Positions 1,538-31,792 are shown, counted from the first letter of the stretch. The stretch: 32,854 bases of DNA from a virus (IMGVR_UViG_2703718859_000017), one strand, 5' to 3'. Notes: generated from the sequence alone by a model not told the origin. Program-made: numbers and translations.

Positions 1538-3211
1538 CTATTCGATTATTGGCGAATATTTATTTTTTAGCTGGCGGCACTCCTGAGCGACCTGGCTGAA
1601 CTGTGCGGCCTGCGGAGACGTGCCCGTTTTTGGGTGGGTATGTGATGCTGTAATATCTGCCAGCTCTTCCACCACATCGGCAAGGTCCGTCAGCATGGTC
1701 AGTACATTAATGCCCTCGTTTCCCAGCTTCACCGTATCGCCAACCAGCTTCTGCGCCAGCGCAATACTGTGACGGACGCCCTTAATCTTTTCGGTAAGGC
1801 TGCCGCCCACGGTGTCCAGGGTGTCGCCTTCCACGTCGCGCTCACAGGTACCGGCAACCACCATCATGTGTCCGCCCGTGCTGATGCTGTAGCTCTCTTC
1901 AGTGATATGGGTGACCGCGCCAGCCTGAAGCGTGGATACGCCCAGGACGGTGGTTGTGTCGGTTGCCTGTATGGTGGTCTCCCGGCTGGTCAGGCTCCGC
2001 GTTTCCTCGTCTGCGCTCACCACGCGCTCGCGTGATGTCTCCTGTATCCGCTGGTCTGTCTGGCGCTCCCAGTCTCCGGCGACCGTCACGCGCTGCGATA
2101 CGCCGTCGCGCTGTTGCTGCAACTGCTCGCCCGGCTTCACGTCGGGCAGATTGTGGCCCTCTGCCATTATCTGGCGGATGAAGGGCTTATCCGCCCGGCC
2201 TTCCACAAATCCCACTTCCACCAGGGTTCCGGGCGGCGGGAACTGGAACATGCCGGACTCACTGCCCGCCATGGGAACGGGGAGGGGAACGGCGTTATAA
2301 ACGGGCGTATCCGCTGCCGGGTTGCCGTTCTCGTCAAGCAGCTGGAGATTCACCGCGTAGCGGGGTCTGAACGGGTCGGCAATATTGCCCGCGCTGACGG
2401 CTTCGGTCGGCGCCTCAACACGTGCCAGTTTGGGCAGGTGAAGCCCTGATGCCAGTTCAGGGAAGGCCTTTTCAGCCTGGCGACGGAAAGGGGACTTCTG
2501 GAGGGGAGCGCCGGTGGCTTTATTGCGCGGTGTCCACGTGATGGTCATGTTGTCATCTTCCAGCATGACCATCGTCAGGCGCTGACCGTTCACCTCCACA
2601 CCCGGTCGCAGCGTCTGAATCATCGGGAGGGTCATACTGTGCCCGCCCGTTGATGCCTGGCTGAACTCGTGCGGGATGGTGACGGGGCGACCGGAAAACA
2701 TCCCCTGCGCGGCAGCAGCGGCCATAATGCCGCCGTCCGGTAACGGATGCCAGATGTAATCCGGTACGGAGAAAATACGCCCCAGACTGGCCAGCAGTTC
2801 GTAGCCCGTGCCGCTGTGTGTGAAATGCGGAACGGGTCTGTCAGTGTAAGCCGCGTTGTCCGGCAGGATGATTTCCAGCCCGCTGGTCTCACTCAGCCAC
2901 TGTGTGACCGTGCGCATTGTCGGGTGCTGAAATGAACAGGGGAAGGGGTGATCAAGGATCCCCGCCATTTCACGAATCAGAAGCCGCACCGAGCCGTTTT
3001 CAGCGGGCTGGCTGCGTTCAACGTATCCGGTAAACCAGCGCACCAGGTCGTTTCCGTATCCGATATCGAGACGAACGGGGCGCCCGGTGTAGTTCTGCTC
3101 TGTTCTGGCCGTGATAAATCCGCGTCCGCACGCGTTCAGCTCAAGCATGACGGAACAACTGACCAGCTGAATGGTGTCGTTACCCAGTAACAGACGTTTA
3201 GTGGGGTTCAT
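1538..3211 (-). CDS. Tail-operon distal protein (557 aa); possible baseplate hub/spike-like component, function not established
   Basis: ORF track. Last gene of the tail operon before the terminator. C-terminal half has repetitive beta-rich character; no hub or spike gene is otherwise recognisable in the tail module. Identity is inference. Confidence 0.3.
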   Translation of the reverse strand: MNPTKRLLLGNDTIQLVSCSVMLELNACGRGFITARTEQNYTGRPVRLDIGYGNDLVRWFTGYVERSQPAENGSVRLLIREMAGILDHPFPCSFQHPTMRTVTQWLSETSGLEIILPDNAAYTDRPVPHFTHSGTGYELLASLGRIFSVPDYIWHPLPDGGIMAAAAAQGMFSGRPVTIPHEFSQASTGGHSMTLPMIQTLRPGVEVNGQRLTMVMLEDDNMTITWTPRNKATGAPLQKSPFRRQAEKAFPELASGLHLPKLARVEAPTEAVSAGNIADPFRPRYAVNLQLLDENGNPAADTPVYNAVPLPVPMAGSESGMFQFPPPGTLVEVGFVEGRADKPFIRQIMAEGHNLPDVKPGEQLQQQRDGVSQRVTVAGDWERQTDQRIQETSRERVVSADEETRSLTSRETTIQATDTTTVLGVSTLQAGAVTHITEESYSISTGGHMMVVAGTCERDVEGDTLDTVGGSLTEKIKGVRHSIALAQKLVGDTVKLGNEGINVLTMLTDLADVVEELADITASHTHPKTGTSPQAAQFSQVAQECRQLKNKYSPIIE

Positions 3212-3213
3212 GG

Positions 3214-3756
3214 TTACTCCAGTGCATCATTGACGGGTTTGAGGACCTTTTCTTCGAACCAGGTCATTTTCTCCGGTGTTTCGTCGGCCACGGTCCCGCC
3301 TTTTGCGCCGGGCGTCTGCGGCGTCTGTTTACGGCTGCTGCCGGGGGTGGCGCGTGCCTGGCGTTTTTCCGGTACGCTTCGTCTTTCGCGTAATGTGAAG
3401 CTGACCTGCCAGGCGAGGCGGTCGGTCTGCTGCTGTGCGTCTATCTGCCCGGAAAATGTCCCTTCACGAAAGTTAATGGCGGCAGCGGTGGCGTTTGCGA
3501 TACGGTAAACTTTCAGGGCACCGTCCCCGGTGGTGGCAGAGGCCAGCTGGAAAATGCGCTGAAGGGCCCGCTCATTGTCAAAGGTGATCATCCCGGTTAC
3601 GCGAAGCTCTTTGGCCTTGATGCCCTGCTCGGCGTTCGCGGTGCTCGATGTCTGACCGGACTGGTCCTTTTCCTGGAACTGCATCGAGGGCGAAATCACC
3701 ATGTTCTGCATGAAAATACCCTCACCATCAAGGGCGAGCAGTGCGGTCTGGCTCAT
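3214..3756 (-). CDS. Hypothetical tail-module protein (180 aa)
   Basis: ORF track. Co-oriented and tightly packed with tail genes. Start may be the internal Met at 3711. Confidence 0.3.
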   Translation of the reverse strand: MSQTALLALDGEGIFMQNMVISPSMQFQEKDQSGQTSSTANAEQGIKAKELRVTGMITFDNERALQRIFQLASATTGDGALKVYRIANATAAAINFREGTFSGQIDAQQQTDRLAWQVSFTLRERRSVPEKRQARATPGSSRKQTPQTPGAKGGTVADETPEKMTWFEEKVLKPVNDALE

Positions 3757-7692: not shown

Positions 7693-8869
7693 TGACCACC
7701 TCCACTGTCAGGGATTCGAGCCGTGGCACGGCCAGATCGCTGATGATGTCTTCCAGTGAAAACTGAACCGAAGCCACCACCGGGAAGGTCTGATGAATTT
7801 CCTTGCCCAGCGTGGAAAACGAAAAGCGCGAATAGGGCCAGACTTTTTTCACATTAAAGCGGGCGTTCTCCCGAAAAGCGCAGCGTATCAGGTCGCTGAT
7901 ATCCTGTTTCAGCCCTTCCGCGCCGTCCGGTGGCAGGGTGGTTGAGCTTCTGATGTATACGGTGACGTCCAGACGGTGACGCGTCTCCGGCATGGCGAAA
8001 CACTGCAAATCATCCCCGTGTCCGTGGTGCCCCTCTTCGTTGATGTAGCGGTTGACTGCTTCAATGAAAGGGGCAGAGGCCTCGCCGCTGTCCAGTAACA
8101 GGTAGGCGTTGGCCGTTCCCGGTCCTCTCGGGGCGTCGTGCTGAAAGTAGATCCGGTCGATGCTCAGGCCTGCCACGCTGGCGATAAGTCCCCGGTAGAC
8201 GGCGTCCGTGTGGTAACTGCTCACGAGGTTAAACTGGTTGCGTATTCTGTCGCGCAGTTCGTCGTCGCTTTCCTCATCGGCACCCGGTACGGTCAGCCAG
8301 TCTTCCCGGTTCACCACGGATGCAATGCCGGGAATGGCAACGGGAAGGATACGGAAGTACCCCGGAGCGAGGTTGTGCCCGCTGCCTTCGGTGGTGGCTT
8401 CCACGGGAACGGATGCGCCGCTTTTACCGCTGCTGATAAGCGTTTCCTCCGTGACGGCCATGCTGTATATCACGCCGTTAATTCTGGCGGTCTGGACGAT
8501 GGTCCCTTCGGGGATGAGAACATCATCATTTGCCCTGGTTTTGGCAAACCAGATCACGCCACTGGCCTTACTGGCCGGTTTTGGGGTGATGTTGACGTCG
8601 TGCGCATGAAGCAGAAGAAGTGACCGGTCAGCCGTGGCGACAAACATACCGGGCAGCACAACGTCAACCAGCGCATCACGCAGCCACTGAACGGGTCGTA
8701 TGACAATGGTCAGAATGAGCCGCCAGAAGGGACTCATGGGCGAGGTGTTGGTGATGAGTCCGGTTTTCTGTACATCCTCATGAAAGAGGGTGGCGATCTC
8801 TTCTTCTGTTTCCGGCATACCGCTTTCACGGAATACCTGATTAAAATCAACGTCCGGTTTCCCTTTCAT
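7685..8869 (-). CDS. J: Baseplate J-like protein
   Basis: 394 aa ORF downstream of the gp25/W-like ORF and upstream of I/H/G. Contains an acidic DDELRDRIRN stretch that resembles remembered baseplate J proteins. Confidence 0.55.
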   Translation of the reverse strand: MKGKPDVDFNQVFRESGMPETEEEIATLFHEDVQKTGLITNTSPMSPFWRLILTIVIRPVQWLRDALVDVVLPGMFVATADRSLLLLHAHDVNITPKPASKASGVIWFAKTRANDDVLIPEGTIVQTARINGVIYSMAVTEETLISSGKSGASVPVEATTEGSGHNLAPGYFRILPVAIPGIASVVNREDWLTVPGADEESDDELRDRIRNQFNLVSSYHTDAVYRGLIASVAGLSIDRIYFQHDAPRGPGTANAYLLLDSGEASAPFIEAVNRYINEEGHHGHGDDLQCFAMPETRHRLDVTVYIRSSTTLPPDGAEGLKQDISDLIRCAFRENARFNVKKVWPYSRFSFSTLGKEIHQTFPVVASVQFSLEDIISDLAVPRLESLTVEVVIE

Positions 8870-24307: not shown

Positions 24308-24712
24308 TTACCTGCGTGATTGTCTGCCAGCGGCTGAATGCACATAGCGGGCAATTGCCGCTTTGCGGTTAATCGTGACCAGTGTTCTGGTGAGTTCTGC
24401 GTTGTGTTTGTGTGCCTGCTCTTCGTGGTACTGCCGCATGATTTTTCCGGCAGGCGTGAGCGGCTCCGGCTCTCCGGGCGGACGGCGCGGACGAACGGCG
24501 ACAAGCCAGCTGCGGTTGGTGCTGTCCGGTCGTCCGTTGAGTATGTCGGTGATGATGGCCGTGGTGGTGCGATCGGGACTGACGACCGTGATTTCCAGCT
24601 CATCGCCCGGTTGTGGTCCCATGGCAATGTTGTTCAGGGTCAGTAAGGGCGTGCGCTGGCGCATCATTTCGTCAAAGCGCTGGCGCTGCATGGCGCAATA
24701 AAAGCGGGTCAT
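24308..24712 (-). CDS. Hypothetical protein (134 aa) translationally coupled to the 3' end of gene A
   Basis: ORF track. Start overlaps the A stop. Occupies the position of P2 orf91. Confidence 0.4.
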   Translation of the reverse strand: MTRFYCAMQRQRFDEMMRQRTPLLTLNNIAMGPQPGDELEITVVSPDRTTTAIITDILNGRPDSTNRSWLVAVRPRRPPGEPEPLTPAGKIMRQYHEEQAHKHNAELTRTLVTINRKAAIARYVHSAAGRQSRR

Positions 24713-27228
24713 TGTGGCGCCTCCGTATTCGGTGCGGGAGTGATATCAATGCGGCGGGTGCTGTCATTCCAGTACGCGGTGCGCCCGTCAGCCAGGCGCA
24801 CGCGGGCACCGTGACGGACGGAAACGACGGCGCTTTCATGCAGCTGCACGCCCAGCGCATCAAGCTCACGGGTGATTTGTGCGGTGATGTGTGGCTCAGC
24901 GGTCAGTGCGACACTCACGCGAACGCCGCCAGCGGGCGCACTGATGCCGCCGTTTTTCACGGTTTCCGTGTCAGGTGGCGGGTTTTTCAGCTGCCTGGTG
25001 AGTTGTTTTCGCTCTGTGGGGGTCAGTGACCTTAACCATTCACCCAAATCACCTTCCGGCAGGGTAAGTCGCTGCTCCCTGCGTCCGTCCGGCTGCCTTT
25101 CTGGCGGGTCGTTTATGGTCAGATTCTGGTCAGGGGGACAGTTATTGCCACGAGTCCAAGGTGCGGCAAAGCCGCACTCAACGTCAAAACCCTCGTCCGT
25201 GCGGTCTTCGTTTTCCGGCTTGCGTCTGACCAGTTTCCAGGTGTCCGGGTGGGTGCATATGGTGTAGCGCTCCCCGAGTGACGGGGCGCGGACGCCGTAA
25301 ATGCGTTGCGGGAATTCGCCGTAGTCGTTGGCCTCTTCGGCAGTTTCGTATGCGGTGCGGACCAGGTACGTGTTGCGGGGAATGAGCACACCACCCTGGC
25401 GGGTGATATAGGTGGCAAAACATCCCACGTCGGCGGCGGCCAGTATGGCGTCAATGTCGTCATGGTCCAGACGCTGCGGGGCAGTCGGGTTACGGGCCAT
25501 CTGCCCGGCAAGGCGGCGGAGTTCGCGCCATACCTGGCGGGGCGGGATACCGAAGAACTGGAACTGGCGGATGCGGTGAAGGGCCGCCCAGCCGATGGCG
25601 TTCTCCACGGTTTCGGCCATGGTTTTGCCTGATTCCTTATCGACGTAAGGTTTGCCGGTTTTCGGGTCATTCCCCATGAAGGCGCTGGCGTCCAGGTTCT
25701 TACCGATATAGGTCGCGATATAGCTTGCCGGTGTGCCTTTTGCCGGGTCGATTTTTTCGCATTTAAAACGCGGGGAGATATCATCACCCAGCTCTGCGCG
25801 GTCCTCCCTGATGGCGGCGTTGCGCATGATTTCAGTGATACGGGCTTCGTTTTCCGGGCTGGTGAATACCAGCATGTGCCAGTGCGGTGTACCGTCGTGG
25901 TGGGGCTCTACTGTGCGCACGCCGTACCAGCCCAGCCCGGCCTTGTTGATGGCCTTGCGGACGGCGGCGAAAAAGCGGTAAACCAGATAATCACTGGCAT
26001 CACGTACCGTTGCCCCGCAGTATTTCGGGTTCAGACTGCCGTCATCGTTCACGCTGTGAAAACGGGAAGGGGCTGTGACGGTGACGAAAAACGCCACGTC
26101 GCCGCGTGCTTCGGCGACCTGCTCCATCCCCCGGACGCAGGCCATCATCTCGTTACGGCGGTTACGCGGATTAGAGAGACCTGCCCAGTAGATATCCTCA
26201 AGGCTGAACCGTTCTCCTTCTTCGTTCTCGATGTCCCAGGCCTTCAGAAAATCGCGGGTGCGCTGGCGTTTTTCGCGCCAGTCCAGTAACGCTTCATGGC
26301 TGATATATATCGATGTCTTACGTGACACCAGACCTGCGGCGCGTAACAGCTCTTCACGCCAGATGTCCCGGAGGTGTCTTAACTGACTGTTCCACCATGT
26401 CGCACAGGAAAGGCGCATGACCGCACCCGGCACCTGTTCCGGGTCGGGGGCGGTGCGGCGGTCGGGCCTGATTTCCAGCGACGGCCAGCAGGGTGGCGTG
26501 ATACCCAGTTTTAACGCCATGTGTGCCAGTGGCTGGTAGGTCAGTAACCAGGTGAACAGGTCATCGTCACCCCTGCCGGTCTTTTCGATGACCTCATCAC
26601 ATGCGCGCTCCAGTGCGGTGGAAAACGCGGTGGCGGTCAGGGTGGCAAGGCGCTGGATTTCGTCACGGCTCAGCTGCGGCAGCATAAGCAGTTCATCCAG
26701 CCGTTCGCGTGCGGCGGTGGCCTTAAAGGCCGGGGTGGCAAAGCGTTCATTCACACGGGCGATACGTTTCAGGCGGGCACGCAGCCCGTGACGAACGAAG
26801 TTATCCGCCGCGTATGCGCTGTTGTTCTTAAGCCCTTCCCGGCGTGCGCTCTCCTGTTTGCGGCTCAGGCGTGCCAGGTCACGGATGAGCGGACCGGCAA
26901 GAAACGGCGGAAGGGCGCGCAGCTCTGCCATGGCTTCAGATACCAGTGTTGGCGGATTCTCGTGTTTGTGCCGCGCCAGTTTTTCCAGCCTGATCCGACG
27001 CTCTTCGTCGTGGTGAAGATGCGAATTAATTCGCTTGCCTTCGTCTGTGTTTGTCAGGAAGTCGACGGTCTCTTCATCCAGTCTTGCATCAATGCGAATG
27101 TCTTCGTTGATGTAGCTCTGAATGGCCTGGCGTAATGCGGTTGGTTGCGCTCTGCCGAACGTTTCAGGATCGATAACCGGTAGCGGGGCGTTCCACGGGT
27201 ACGCCAGCTGTGCATTGTGGTCACTCAT
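24709..27228 (-). CDS. A: Rolling-circle replication initiator (P2 gpA-like HUH endonuclease)
   Basis: ORF track 24709..27237 begins GTG; ATG at 27228 overlaps the upstream ORF stop (ATGA). Contains TPHWHMLVF (HUH motif) and YIATYIGK (active-site tyrosines). About 840 aa. Confidence 0.85.
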   Translation of the reverse strand: MSDHNAQLAYPWNAPLPVIDPETFGRAQPTALRQAIQSYINEDIRIDARLDEETVDFLTNTDEGKRINSHLHHDEERRIRLEKLARHKHENPPTLVSEAMAELRALPPFLAGPLIRDLARLSRKQESARREGLKNNSAYAADNFVRHGLRARLKRIARVNERFATPAFKATAARERLDELLMLPQLSRDEIQRLATLTATAFSTALERACDEVIEKTGRGDDDLFTWLLTYQPLAHMALKLGITPPCWPSLEIRPDRRTAPDPEQVPGAVMRLSCATWWNSQLRHLRDIWREELLRAAGLVSRKTSIYISHEALLDWREKRQRTRDFLKAWDIENEEGERFSLEDIYWAGLSNPRNRRNEMMACVRGMEQVAEARGDVAFFVTVTAPSRFHSVNDDGSLNPKYCGATVRDASDYLVYRFFAAVRKAINKAGLGWYGVRTVEPHHDGTPHWHMLVFTSPENEARITEIMRNAAIREDRAELGDDISPRFKCEKIDPAKGTPASYIATYIGKNLDASAFMGNDPKTGKPYVDKESGKTMAETVENAIGWAALHRIRQFQFFGIPPRQVWRELRRLAGQMARNPTAPQRLDHDDIDAILAAADVGCFATYITRQGGVLIPRNTYLVRTAYETAEEANDYGEFPQRIYGVRAPSLGERYTICTHPDTWKLVRRKPENEDRTDEGFDVECGFAAPWTRGNNCPPDQNLTINDPPERQPDGRREQRLTLPEGDLGEWLRSLTPTERKQLTRQLKNPPPDTETVKNGGISAPAGGVRVSVALTAEPHITAQITRELDALGVQLHESAVVSVRHGARVRLADGRTAYWNDSTRRIDITPAPNTEAPQ

Positions 27229-27641
27229 GCGTCGCACTCCCCGGCAGTCGCCGCCTGAAACGCCGCGCGGTACAGCACGAGAAGGCGCTGGTATTCACCG
27301 ATAAAGTCTTCTGCGGTGTATATGCCTTTCACGGCCACGCTGTGCGTTGTCATTTCCAGCACAAGCGCCATCTCTGACGACGACCAGTTGATGGCGGTGC
27401 TGTCGGTTCCGTTGATGTGAAATAAACCAAAACCATCACCATCACCTTTCACGTCCACGCGGTAACGGTCGTCAACGGTGAAGGAGAAATCCCCGTATGT
27501 GGTGACGCGTCTGGTGGCCTGTTTACAGGCGCGGCGGTAATAGTCGTGCCAGTCGTTCAGGCGGGAAGCCAGCCGGGGATCCACTGCCCACATCCAGTTA
27601 AAAAAGTCCTGAATATCTGAAAGTCCCTTAACGCTCTTCAT
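27225..27641 (-). CDS. Hypothetical protein (138 aa) coupled to the start of A
   Basis: ORF track. Stop overlaps the A start codon. No recognisable motif. Confidence 0.45.
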   Translation of the reverse strand: MKSVKGLSDIQDFFNWMWAVDPRLASRLNDWHDYYRRACKQATRRVTTYGDFSFTVDDRYRVDVKGDGDGFGLFHINGTDSTAINWSSSEMALVLEMTTHSVAVKGIYTAEDFIGEYQRLLVLYRAAFQAATAGECDA

Positions 27642-27709
27642 GAGAACCTCCGGTAACAGACGTGCGGAAGCCTCCCGCGCACGGGTGCGGGATGGCTTCA
27701 GGATGTTGT

Positions 27710-27937
27710 TTAGTGGTGGTGTTGCTGGTTGATAAGGTCCTGCAGTTCTGCCAGGTCATCCGCCAGGTAGCTGAAGACGGCGGCGTAATACCCGGCAGCG
27801 ATACCATCGTTAAGTCGGTGTAATGCGTTTGACTGCATGATGAAGGTGACAGATGCAGCCCGATGGAGTCTGCGGTTGATTTCAGTGCGGATGTGAAGAC
27901 GCTCAGCGCGGGCGCGCTGTTGTTTGCGGTTTGCCAT
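27710..27937 (-). CDS. Small basic hypothetical protein (75 aa)
   Basis: ORF track. ATG 27937 with AAGAGG SD. The SD overlaps the 3' arm of a 9-bp perfect stem in the upstream structured element. Confidence 0.45.
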   Translation of the reverse strand: MANRKQQRARAERLHIRTEINRRLHRAASVTFIMQSNALHRLNDGIAAGYYAAVFSYLADDLAELQDLINQQHHH

Positions 27938-28257
27938 GGTGTTTGGCCTCTTGTAGTAAGTTCTGAAAACTCACCAACCCGAGGTTCCAAGCTCAGGGTG
28001 GCGAGACGTACAGGGTTGGAACTACCGGCTACAAGAGATCCCGGCCCGACCGAAGTCGGCCCCGTACGCCCCGCCATAATTCTGACGCGAAAAAGACGTG
28101 GCGATACAGTACGCACAAAAAAACCGCTGGCGCGGTTGTGCGCTCTTGTAGTCGGCGGGGTTCCAATCCCGGCACCCGTTTTATGAGGTGCGGGAAAACT
28201 GTAACCCGACCAGGCGAACGCTGGCAAGCGGTTTTTTTGTGTGTGCATGATGATCAC
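27938..28257. other. Structured GC-rich intergenic element with nested inverted and direct repeats (CTCTTGTAG at 27948-27956 and 28143-28151, reverse complement at 28029-28037; GGTTCCAA at 27983-27990 and 28159-28166, reverse complement at 28016-28022); candidate cis-regulatory RNA or ncRNA
   Basis: Read directly from the sequence. The only track ORF here (27628..28257, 209 aa) is low-complexity and judged spurious. Confidence 0.4.
28117..28137 (-). terminator. Intrinsic terminator on the minus strand inside the structured element (stem AACCGC/GCGGTT, loop GCCA, then U-run)
   Basis: Minus strand reads aaccgcgccagcggtt followed by ttttt, about 120 nt downstream of the ORF183 stop. Confidence 0.45.
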
Positions 28258-28809
28258 TCAGTCCGGTAACAGTTCAGAGAGCACGGCGTCAGCCGCGGTG
28301 CGGCGGTGGTAGAGATGCCGTACTGTGCTAATGGTGAGTTTCATCTGCTGCGTACTGTTGATGTGCTCTGCTATCATGACGAATGTCATGTGCTGTTCAT
28401 CACGTAGTTCTGTCACCAGTTCCACCAGGCGATCGCTGTGTCTGGCGTTGGGGTGTAGCTCCCCGCATTTTTGTAGACTAAAACCGCGCTTATTCAGGTG
28501 TGCTTTTACTGTGCGATCGGTACATCCCAGCCCGTTCGCCAGTTCCTTCGCTGTTCTGGTGTGGCGGTTTTTGATGAGAATGGTGATTTCTTTTCTGCTC
28601 AGCACCTTTCTCTTGCGGCCAATCAATCCACGATTACGTAAAACATGAATTCTGTTCATAACTGCGCTACTGGTTCGTTGAATTCGTTCAGCCATCTGAT
28701 GTGTGTTGTGTTCCTGATAAAGCGAGATGAGTAACTGATCTTCCTGCTGTGTCCACGCCTTCACATGTGCCGGGGCTTTGCCCGGTATTCCCATTGGTGT
28801 AAGTCTCAT
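28258..28809 (-). CDS. Putative DNA-binding protein with three helix-turn-helix-like repeats (183 aa)
   Basis: ORF track. Three similar segments containing ...RTVKAHL..., ...SAVMNRIHVL..., ...STVRHLY... typical of HTH recognition helices. Function unknown. Confidence 0.4.
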   Translation of the reverse strand: MRLTPMGIPGKAPAHVKAWTQQEDQLLISLYQEHNTHQMAERIQRTSSAVMNRIHVLRNRGLIGRKRKVLSRKEITILIKNRHTRTAKELANGLGCTDRTVKAHLNKRGFSLQKCGELHPNARHSDRLVELVTELRDEQHMTFVMIAEHINSTQQMKLTISTVRHLYHRRTAADAVLSELLPD

Positions 28810-31383: not shown

Positions 31384-31498
31384 CTGATATCCTCCGCCAT
31401 TGGTGCTTTTTCTAATTGGCACTATTTGGAACCACTTAGAACATTTTGTTTGCTGTTCATATGTGGTGTTAATCTACACATATGTAGGAGTTTGTCAA
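31384..31498. promoter_or_regulatory. Lysis-lysogeny switch region between divergent cox and C starts (expected Pe/Pc promoters and C operators)
   Basis: 115-bp AT-rich gap between the divergent cox and C start codons. Repeated CATATGT-like elements visible. By analogy to P2; promoters not mapped. Confidence 0.45.
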
Positions 31499-31792
31499 AT
31501 GGATATTCCTCAAAAAATTCGCGTCATGCGTAAATCTGAAGATCTCACTCAGCGGGAATTCGCTGATATGATTGGAATTTCTTATTCTGCTCTGACCAGT
31601 TATGAGTATGGTCGTAACCTTCCTGGCCTTGAGATCACCATCAAGCTTTTCAAGCATCCTAGATTTTCTAAATACCGTGACTGGTTTTTGTTCGATGAGG
31701 TCGAACCAAAGGCCGGGCAGGTGGTACCGGCTCTCGCACACATTGGGCAAAGCGAAGCGGAATCATCCCACTCCGGCAAGAAGACTGGTTAA
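31499..31792 (+). CDS. C: Immunity repressor C (P2 C-like)
   Basis: 97 aa from ATG 31499 with GGAG SD. Segments RVMRKSEDLTQREFADMIGISYSALTSYEYGR and VPALAHIGQSEAESSHSGKKTG match the remembered P2 C protein closely. Confidence 0.8.
   Translation: MDIPQKIRVMRKSEDLTQREFADMIGISYSALTSYEYGRNLPGLEITIKLFKHPRFSKYRDWFLFDEVEPKAGQVVPALAHIGQSEAESSHSGKKTG

Follow-up and report, generated by a model that had tools for sequence, protein, structure and literature searches.

The viral sequence IMGVR_UViG_2703718859_000017, whose whole stretch of 32,854 nt we refer to as the window, contains at 27938-28257 a 320-bp element that lies directly upstream of three minus-strand genes, ORF75, ORF138 and A (ORF, open reading frame). 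A preliminary description had viewed this element as a leader with nested repeats, an internal terminator and a sequestered ribosome-binding site (RBS), acting on the minus strand, and had proposed RNA folding, an Rfam covariance search and an alignment of related prophages as ways to check it. We observed that the element carries two small RNA (sRNA) genes of known Rfam families, isrK followed by C4, and then two sites, a2 and b2, complementary to the C4 RNA, of which b2 overlaps the Shine-Dalgarno sequence of ORF75. Both matches are on the minus strand, as had been expected, and the Rfam search on the plus strand of the region gave no match above noise. The Rfam accessions of the C4, isrK and c4-a1b1 motifs are RF01695, RF01394 and RF03163, respectively (see Weinberg et al., 2010, PMC2864571).

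The C4 antisense RNA occupies 27994..28081 of the minus strand. It matched the complete RF01695 model (positions 1-87 of 87, at 28081..27994) with 83.3 bits against a gathering score of 45 (E = 3.6e-15), and is 88 nt long. It is composed of a long closing stem, a UUCG hairpin, a second hairpin whose loop is the segment b′ (CUCUUGUAG, 28029..28037), and a 3′ single-stranded junction that contains the segment a′ (GUUCCAA, 28016..28022). Folded alone, this segment had a minimum free energy (MFE) of −47.8 kcal/mol (z = −4.96), which was not equalled by any of 200 shuffles, and the predicted fold was the family structure with both a′ and b′ unpaired. In the consensus fold of 56 C4 variants, described below, 14 of the 24 scaffold pairs have undergone compensatory changes. 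The RNA is a homologue of P1 C4, of the P4 CI RNA and of STnc1160 of Gifsy-1. The C4-type RNAs of P1 and P4 are stable, processed immunity factors that act in trans, and their excision from a longer transcript is RNase P-dependent.

Upstream of C4 on the same strand lies an IsrK-family leader sRNA (28117..28191), which matched the full RF01394 model (1-77 of 77, at 28191..28117) with 69.1 bits, the gathering score being 50. It consists of a hairpin 1, a hairpin 2 that presents the segment a1 (UUGGAAC, 28160..28166) in its loop, a single-stranded segment b1 (CUACAAGAG, 28143..28151) and an intrinsic terminator. Segment a1 is complementary to a′ of C4, and b1 to b′; the latter complementarity can be extended to 12 of 13 nt (28143-28155 with 28025-28037). 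This leader is homologous to the seqA region of P4 and to the a1b1 leader of P1. Known characteristics of IsrK are a promoter of its own, partial read-through at the terminator, Hfq binding, and activation of the long form by the short form in trans. The intrinsic terminator (28117..28137, AACCGC-GCCA-GCGGUU and a U run) has its stem at 28137..28122, followed by U7, and is invariant in relatives. It is taken in by the covariance-model match and was found independently in a terminator scan. The preliminary description was right that a terminator exists in the leader, where it probably allows some read-through, and wrong in placing it before the element: it lies inside, between the upstream repeat copies and the middle copy, and belongs to the IsrK-family sRNA.

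A promoter was predicted for this leader at 28198..28238 of the minus strand from a consensus scan and from conservation. It comprises an A7 tract (28238..28232), a −35 hexamer TTGCCA (28227..28222), an 18-nt spacer and a −10 hexamer TACAGT (28203..28198) that ends 7 nt before the first IsrK nucleotide; the predicted transcription start is at ∼28191. We aligned the 340-nt module from 14 P2-like (P88-like) loci, and in these the A-tract and the hexamers, with the distance between them, show little or no change, despite differing upstream genes. The conserved cassette starts at about 28247. Immediately upstream of the module in the window is ORF183 (28258-28809, minus strand), a SANT/Myb-like helix-turn-helix protein (phrog_323); it is present in some relatives (L001, L073 and L130), and unrelated genes take its place in P88 and others. 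Around the promoter we also noticed a 21-nt inverted repeat, 90% complementary, between 28111-28131 and 28224-28244. Its upstream arm, A7CCGCUUGC, which lies upstream of and overlaps the −35 hexamer, has its complement in the 3′ half and the U-tract of the IsrK terminator. This sequence is expected solely in transcripts arriving from the upstream early operon, where it might compete with the terminator, and it may equally be a mere UP-element-like A-tract. The inverted repeat is invariant in 13 of the 14 relatives and absent from the Stx2-phage version of the module.

Downstream of C4, the segment a2 (UUGGAAC, 27984..27990, minus strand) is located 4 nt past the C4 match and is the target of a′, while b2 (CUACAAGAG, 27956..27948), the target of b′, overlaps the Shine-Dalgarno sequence AAGAGG (27952..27947), which precedes the ORF75 ATG (27937) by 9 nt. 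The earlier proposal that the downstream pairing covers the ORF75 RBS was therefore borne out by this overlap. In all four site pairs, the isolated segments had a calculated duplex energy of about −13 to −14 kcal/mol. RNAcofold gave almost no energy gain when C4 was combined with IsrK or with the target, because loop-loop contacts of the pseudoknot type are not modelled by it. Between a2 and b2 the mRNA contains a conserved 9-bp hairpin, GGUGAGUUU/GAACUUACU (27941-27990, minus strand), in which the CCUC beside a2 is predicted to pair with the GAGG of the ORF75 Shine-Dalgarno sequence. A further GC-rich hairpin, CAGCGC-GCCC-GCGCUG (27904-27919, minus strand), is located within codons 7-12 of ORF75, 18 nt past the start codon, and relatives retain a hairpin within early ORF75 with different sequences, for example CCGCG-CUAU-CGCGG.

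These six segments account for the repeats by which the element had first been noticed. The 9-mer CTCTTGTAG occurs exactly three times in the window, always within the element and in the direct/inverted/direct layout that had been described (27948-27956 on the plus strand, 28029-28037 on the minus strand and 28143-28151 on the plus strand), where about 0.05 occurrences are expected by chance. GTTCCAA is arranged likewise (27984-27990 plus, 28016-28022 minus and 28160-28166 plus). For the 8-mer GGTTCCAA, to which the same arrangement had been ascribed, we found complete matches in the two outer copies only; the middle copy is matched at 7 of 8 positions, and the core truly shared by all three is GTTCCAA. 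A 9-mer in direct/inverted/direct layout appeared in 0.05% of 2000 dinucleotide shuffles of the 320 bp, and four 7-mers in this layout, as observed here, in none of the 2000. One more GTTCCAA, near cox (31426-31432), does not exceed chance expectation. The repeats are thus real and far beyond chance, and they are the defining parts of a known phage RNA system, C4/IsrK.

We examined the pairings in the alignment of the 14 loci. Over its full length the module shows 87% identity; hardly any change is seen in the promoter hexamers, the scaffolds of both RNAs, the terminator or the spacers, and the variation is concentrated in six patches, namely a1, b1, b′, a′, a2 and b2. For C4 with a2/b2, 98.2% of the cells in the alignment were paired and 9 of the 16 pairs had changed on both sides, with a covariation score of 0.651 (shuffle mean 0.136). 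The corresponding values for C4 with a1/b1 were 99.6%, 10 of 16, and 0.672 (shuffle mean 0.135). None of 500 shuffles reached the observed score in either case, and when the register of the a2/b2 pairing was slid, all scores were ≤0.21 with 40-48% of the cells paired. Each of the four helices contributes: a1:a′ is 99% paired with double changes at 4 of 7 pairs, b1:b′ 100% with 6 of 9, a2:a′ 100% with 4 of 7, and b2:b′ 96.8% with 5 of 9. That the middle copy is able to pair with either flanking copy, as first suggested, is strongly supported for both pairings by these compensatory changes.

The same relation was seen in a wider set. From a pattern scan of viral contigs we obtained 56 distinct C4 variants, which carry 48 different b′ loops and 30 different a′ segments. 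Exact complements of at least 7 nt to a locus's own a′ and b′ were present at fixed offsets upstream and downstream in 35-55 of the 56 loci, whereas cross-locus pairings with exact complements of this length amounted to 1-2%. We noted that the a and b specificities are mixed and matched among relatives: the a′ of the window is found with another b′ (L001), its b′ with another a′ in a Salmonella locus (L163), and the single b′ type CUUUGGUUG with three different a′ types. In one locus (L065) a2 still matches a′ and a1 no longer does. The recognition patches of P88 are CUGUAGUUG (b′) and GUGGAAA (a′). An exact scan of species-representative genomes did not find the a′/b′ combination of the window, and we found no consistent further a- or b-type targets elsewhere in the related loci.

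The first gene downstream of the sites, ORF75 (27710..27937, minus strand), is a homologue of the derepression (anti-repressor) protein epsilon of P4. It matched the Pfam 'Derepression' family PF25738, of which P4 epsilon is the founding member (170 bits), with 27.6 bits against a cut-off of 27; in BLASTP it is 32% identical to P4 epsilon over 50 amino acids (aa; E = 6e-8), and its homologues carry the RefSeq name 'derepression protein'. No BLASTP similarity to P1 Icd was found. A search for ORF75 relatives in the species-representative genome collection gave only two loci. The RNA of ORF75 is C-rich and G-poor, with a C/G ratio of 1.4-3.6. The second gene, ORF138 (27225..27641, minus strand; phrog_3237), has no similarity to P4 orf151, and relatives differ in the gene that they carry here. 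The regulated unit ends with the replication endonuclease A of the P2 gpA family (24709..27228, minus strand; Pfam Phage_GPA, 358.9 bits). Its frame had been listed from a GTG at 27237; the ATG at 27228, which overlaps the ORF138 stop (ATGA, 27228..27225), is likely the true start, and this overlap suggests translational coupling. The two genes also overlap by 4 nt in an annotated Escherichia coli homologue (L159). The order C4, epsilon-like gene, small ORF and gpA is kept in 14 viral contigs with at least 10 different a′/b′ combinations.

As a whole, the window represents a complete prophage of the P2 family. Among its gene products are terminase, portal, P2-type major capsid, scaffold, baseplate and tail fibre proteins, together with Cox, an integrase, the gpA-type replication nickase and a P2 C-type repressor (31500-31792) that is 45% identical to P2 C. 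P2 C belongs to the known target family of epsilon. Having its own capsid and tail genes, the window is not a P4-like satellite, a type of small element that has psu, sid, delta and alpha and lacks such genes. Among sequenced phages it is most closely related to Citrobacter phage Shae_phiSM and Escherichia phage P88 (genus Xuanwuvirus). Rfam matched nothing in the early regions of canonical P2 and 186, which makes the cassette a trait of the P88-like lineage. Of 5426 complete E. coli genomes, 1220 contain related module sequence, with 88.8% identity in the best match. P88 was obtained by mitomycin C treatment (PMC5285337). We found no LexA box (CTGT-N8-ACAG) in the window, and SOS control of the module is therefore not supported.

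Taken together, we consider it very probable that the element is a module of the P1 immI, P4 CI-RNA and Gifsy-1 IsrK type, which governs immunity and an anti-repressor by means of RNA and is located in the early operon of a P88-like, Xuanwuvirus-type P2-family prophage, and most likely it keeps the anti-repressor-like gene and the replication gene off. By analogy with the characterised homologues, the module might work as follows. The conserved promoter (28227..28198) would start the minus-strand leader at ∼28191, and most transcripts would end at the terminator (28137..28117), giving an IsrK-like sRNA of ∼75 nt that displays a1 and b1. Read-through transcripts would hold the 88-nt C4 and the ORF75-ORF138-A mRNA, and C4 would be cut out as a stable RNA, as in P1 and P4. 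Its b′ and a′ would then pair, in cis or in trans, with b2 and a2 just downstream in the mRNA and, since b2 overlaps the ORF75 Shine-Dalgarno sequence, ribosomes would be excluded. The untranslated C-rich ORF75 RNA would be expected to be terminated by Rho, so that ORF138 and the translationally coupled A would also stay off. The prophage would in this way avoid producing the epsilon-like anti-repressor and the replication initiator, and a superinfecting phage of the same a/b specificity would be blocked too. The a1/b1 segments of IsrK would be decoy targets; free IsrK could titrate C4 and release translation, providing an on-switch at the RNA level.

Several observations weigh against this interpretation. 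The c4-a1b1 model (RF03163) reached 21.5 bits, below its threshold of 46.7, in a region consisting of the same nucleotides that the overlapping isrK model covers, and the IsrK segment by itself is not unusually stable compared with shuffles (z = −1.3). In the MFE structure of the whole 267-nt leader, a1b1 pairs with a′b′ in cis and part of the C4 scaffold is broken; hence the cis conformer could dominate before processing. The mRNA's own a2-b2 hairpin, whose stability is not significantly above that of shuffles (z = −1.4), may already mask the Shine-Dalgarno sequence, at least partly, without C4. The anti-repressor activity of ORF75 is proposed from its homologues, and the Pfam cut-off is barely passed. 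The interpretation also requires that lytic early-promoter transcripts somehow pass the terminator and C4 to reach the essential gene A. Finally, that the promoter is active, where the RNAs end, and that C4 is processed and acts in trans are inferences for this prophage.

The preliminary description had framed the element as a cis-acting attenuator. In its strict form this explanation holds that the middle copy pairs with either the upstream or the downstream copy and alone sets access to the ORF75 RBS, with no RNA acting in trans. The cis pairing in the MFE structure of the 267-nt leader fits it, and so does 'structure A' of Gifsy-1, an inactive conformer of the read-through transcript that has experimental support. 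However, the a1b1:a′b′ pairing of this MFE structure would free b2, which is the opposite of the Gifsy-1 off state. Moreover, the middle copy is the recognition surface of an autonomously folding, very stable and covarying C4 RNA, whose family members in P1 and P4 are processed and act in trans, and the patches are hypervariable between otherwise near-identical modules, with a and b mixed, as expected of trans specificity determinants. A stable antisense RNA able to act in trans explains the middle element better, and we regard a purely cis switch as improbable. A somewhat better case, though still an unlikely one, can be made for an output of the P4 type, where pairing of C4 with a1b1 and a2b2 on the nascent RNA would mainly cause premature termination upstream of ORF75-ORF138-A, the translation block not being primary. 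The P4 CI RNA and the C4 of the window share one Rfam family, and P4 likewise has the flanking sites and, further downstream, an epsilon gene; the order of epsilon-like gene, small ORF and replication gene parallels the P4 left operon, and the ORF75 RNA is C-rich. On the other hand, b2 of the window is placed directly on the Shine-Dalgarno sequence of ORF75, as on that of icd in P1, whereas epsilon in P4 is ∼245 nt away, and a consensus scan of the minus strand between C4 and ORF75 found no terminator-like site. Nor do the two modes exclude each other; in P1, Rho termination follows from the block of translation itself.

We give hardly any weight to two other explanations. According to one of them the region codes for protein, as a 209-aa ORF (28257..27628) or an 'Ash family protein', the repeats being incidental. 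An open frame does span the region, a weak Pfam Phage_ASH match was obtained (18.3 bits, below the cut-off of 26), and RefSeq lists an 'ash family protein' at homologous loci of E. coli genomes. We rejected this reading on the grounds that a coding constraint cannot be the source of the three-way reverse-complement covariation of the patches, that two RNA families are above threshold here, and that the 209-aa ORF overlaps ORF75 out of frame; the Phage_ASH family, in addition, also matches the P4 'cI' coding sequence (CDS), which lies over the CI RNA gene. The immunity factor of P4 is an RNA. The other one, also taken from the preliminary description, is a plus-strand antisense sRNA that would end at a hairpin followed by T7 (∼28219-28238) and regulate the minus-strand transcript. 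A 4-bp stem and T7 are indeed present, and the plus strand folds stably (z = −4.2), as does the complement of any structured RNA. Nevertheless, the hairpin was not called in the terminator scan, its local fold is weaker than that of shuffles (z = +1.9), and its stem is broken in 12 of the 14 relatives, for which reasons this candidate was discarded; between 27600 and 29200 no plus-strand promoter-like site was found. The A-tract and TTGCCA remain invariant in these relatives, and the A-tract and −35 region of the conserved minus-strand promoter account better for this sequence.

Some existing annotations are touched by these results. In P4 (L158) the Pfam family PF10554 'Phage_ASH' matches the 'cI' CDS (8330-8521, minus strand) at 59.7 bits, and its sub-threshold match in the window falls on residues 19-101 of the 209-aa ORF, that is on 27955-28203 (minus strand), spanning exactly isrK, C4 and b2. 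PF10554 seems to have been built from translated copies of the IsrK-C4-a2b2 RNA module. This family was used as an epsilon marker in a survey of P4 satellites (PMC8628076), while epsilon itself belongs to PF25738 in our analysis. In Stx2a_WGPS2 (L003) and mEp460 (L004), a 383-aa 'transcriptional regulator/antirepressor' CDS (2155-3306) crosses isrK (2515-2591) and C4 (2616-2703). Its Rha domain begins past an ATG at 2761 whose Shine-Dalgarno sequence is overlapped by b2, and the annotated start is therefore probably ∼600 nt too far upstream; in the Stx2 phages and mEp460 the b2 of this module overlaps the Shine-Dalgarno sequence of a Rha-family regulator. In P88 (L002), the 'hypothetical protein' SF19_gp13 (3556-3744, minus strand) lies on the strand opposite to isrK and C4, covers both, has no Pfam match, and is probably not a gene. 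Two sRNA genes and their targets hence lie where public records are blank or hold doubtful CDSs.

The module is not a new kind of regulator, being made of two known Rfam families; what is unusual is its context in a helper-type P2-family phage. The RNA immunity cassette of P1, P4 and Gifsy-1 is a standard part of one P2-family phage lineage too, and its near-identical scaffolds with swapped patches form a natural series for studying the evolution of antisense specificity and heteroimmunity. In the literature searched we found no paper describing the module in P88-like phages; according to a survey of P4-like satellites, no P4-specific gene other than delta has clear homologues in P2-like phages (PMC8628076). 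As a tentative proposal, which we hold to be possible rather than probable, P88-like helper-family phages may carry the RNA-immunity and epsilon cassette that the satellite P4 employs against P2. The balance of IsrK and C4 would then gate an epsilon-like anti-repressor, whose target would be the P2 C-type repressor of the phage itself, which it would inactivate. If true, these P2-family phages would possess, besides an RNA-controlled route of induction, a second immunity specified by RNA, whose a/b specificities are numerous and interchangeable. It would, moreover, point to an exchange of the derepression weapon and CI-RNA immunity of P4 with helper-family phages, or to their capture from such phages.

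Next, we compared the module with the known systems. In Gifsy-1, the locus reads isrK, 'orf45'/STnc1160, anrP and isrJ. Like the window, it has an IsrK-family sRNA, a C4-family RNA within ∼25-35 nt and then an anti-repressor-type gene: isrK scored 79 bits, C4 69 bits 25 nt later, followed by anrP, and c4-a1b1 scored 48 bits. The 'orf45'/STnc1160 region (L164, 34131-34214, minus strand) is a full-length C4-family RNA (69 bits), and the locus is thus a P1 immI-type module. Hershko-Shalev et al. (2016, PMC4825925), who treat the C4 segment as a 45-codon ORF and stress activation by IsrK, reported that some isrK transcripts pass a leaky terminator, that the long RNA is translationally silent with a conformer pairing the middle of IsrK with a downstream segment, and that translation and prophage induction are switched on by short IsrK acting in trans. 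The cis pairing of the IsrK middle with the C4 segment in the MFE structure of the window is the equivalent of this inactive structure. Gifsy-1 differs in being lambdoid and in its target, the Rha/Ant-like AnrP that leads to AntQ expression, where the window has ORF75, ORF138 and A.

In P4, the immunity region has the order seqA, CI RNA/seqB, seqC, epsilon, orf151, cnr and alpha. The CI RNA scored 74.9 bits on the C4 model and the seqA region 60.8 bits on isrK, both above threshold, and c4-a1b1 scored 44 bits; an epsilon-family gene, a small ORF and a replication gene follow in the same order as in the window. The control in P4 is described as premature transcription termination. Unlike in the window, where b2 lies on the Shine-Dalgarno sequence of the epsilon-like gene, P4 epsilon starts ∼245 nt after the RNA; the replication gene is the alpha primase-helicase instead of a P2 gpA-type nickase, and P4 is a satellite while the window is a complete helper-type phage.

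The immI region of P1 and P7 offers a parallel for the whole layout. Its promoter is followed by a leader that shows a1 in the loop of a hairpin and also carries b1, then by a terminator-like hairpin and by C4, whose b′ is in a loop and whose a′ is in the junction. Only a few nt separate a2 from C4, b2 lies on the Shine-Dalgarno sequence of a first ORF of ∼75 codons, and effector genes come further downstream. The geometry of the annotated P1c4 promoter and its spacing to the leader are those of the candidate promoter of the window, and in P1, too, b2 covers the icd RBS and a2 takes the same position. The P1 leader is weak on the isrK model (35 bits, compared with 69 bits in the window) and scored 51 bits on c4-a1b1. 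In P1 and P7 the first ORF is Icd, where the window has the epsilon-like ORF75; the downstream genes are ant1 and ant2, where the window has ORF138 and the replication gene A; and the prophage is a plasmid, where the window is an integrated P2-family phage. As in immI, a1/b1 lie upstream of C4 and a2/b2 downstream, and the patches change together among relatives; the order annotated in P1, a1, b1, c4, a2 and b2, is the order of the window.

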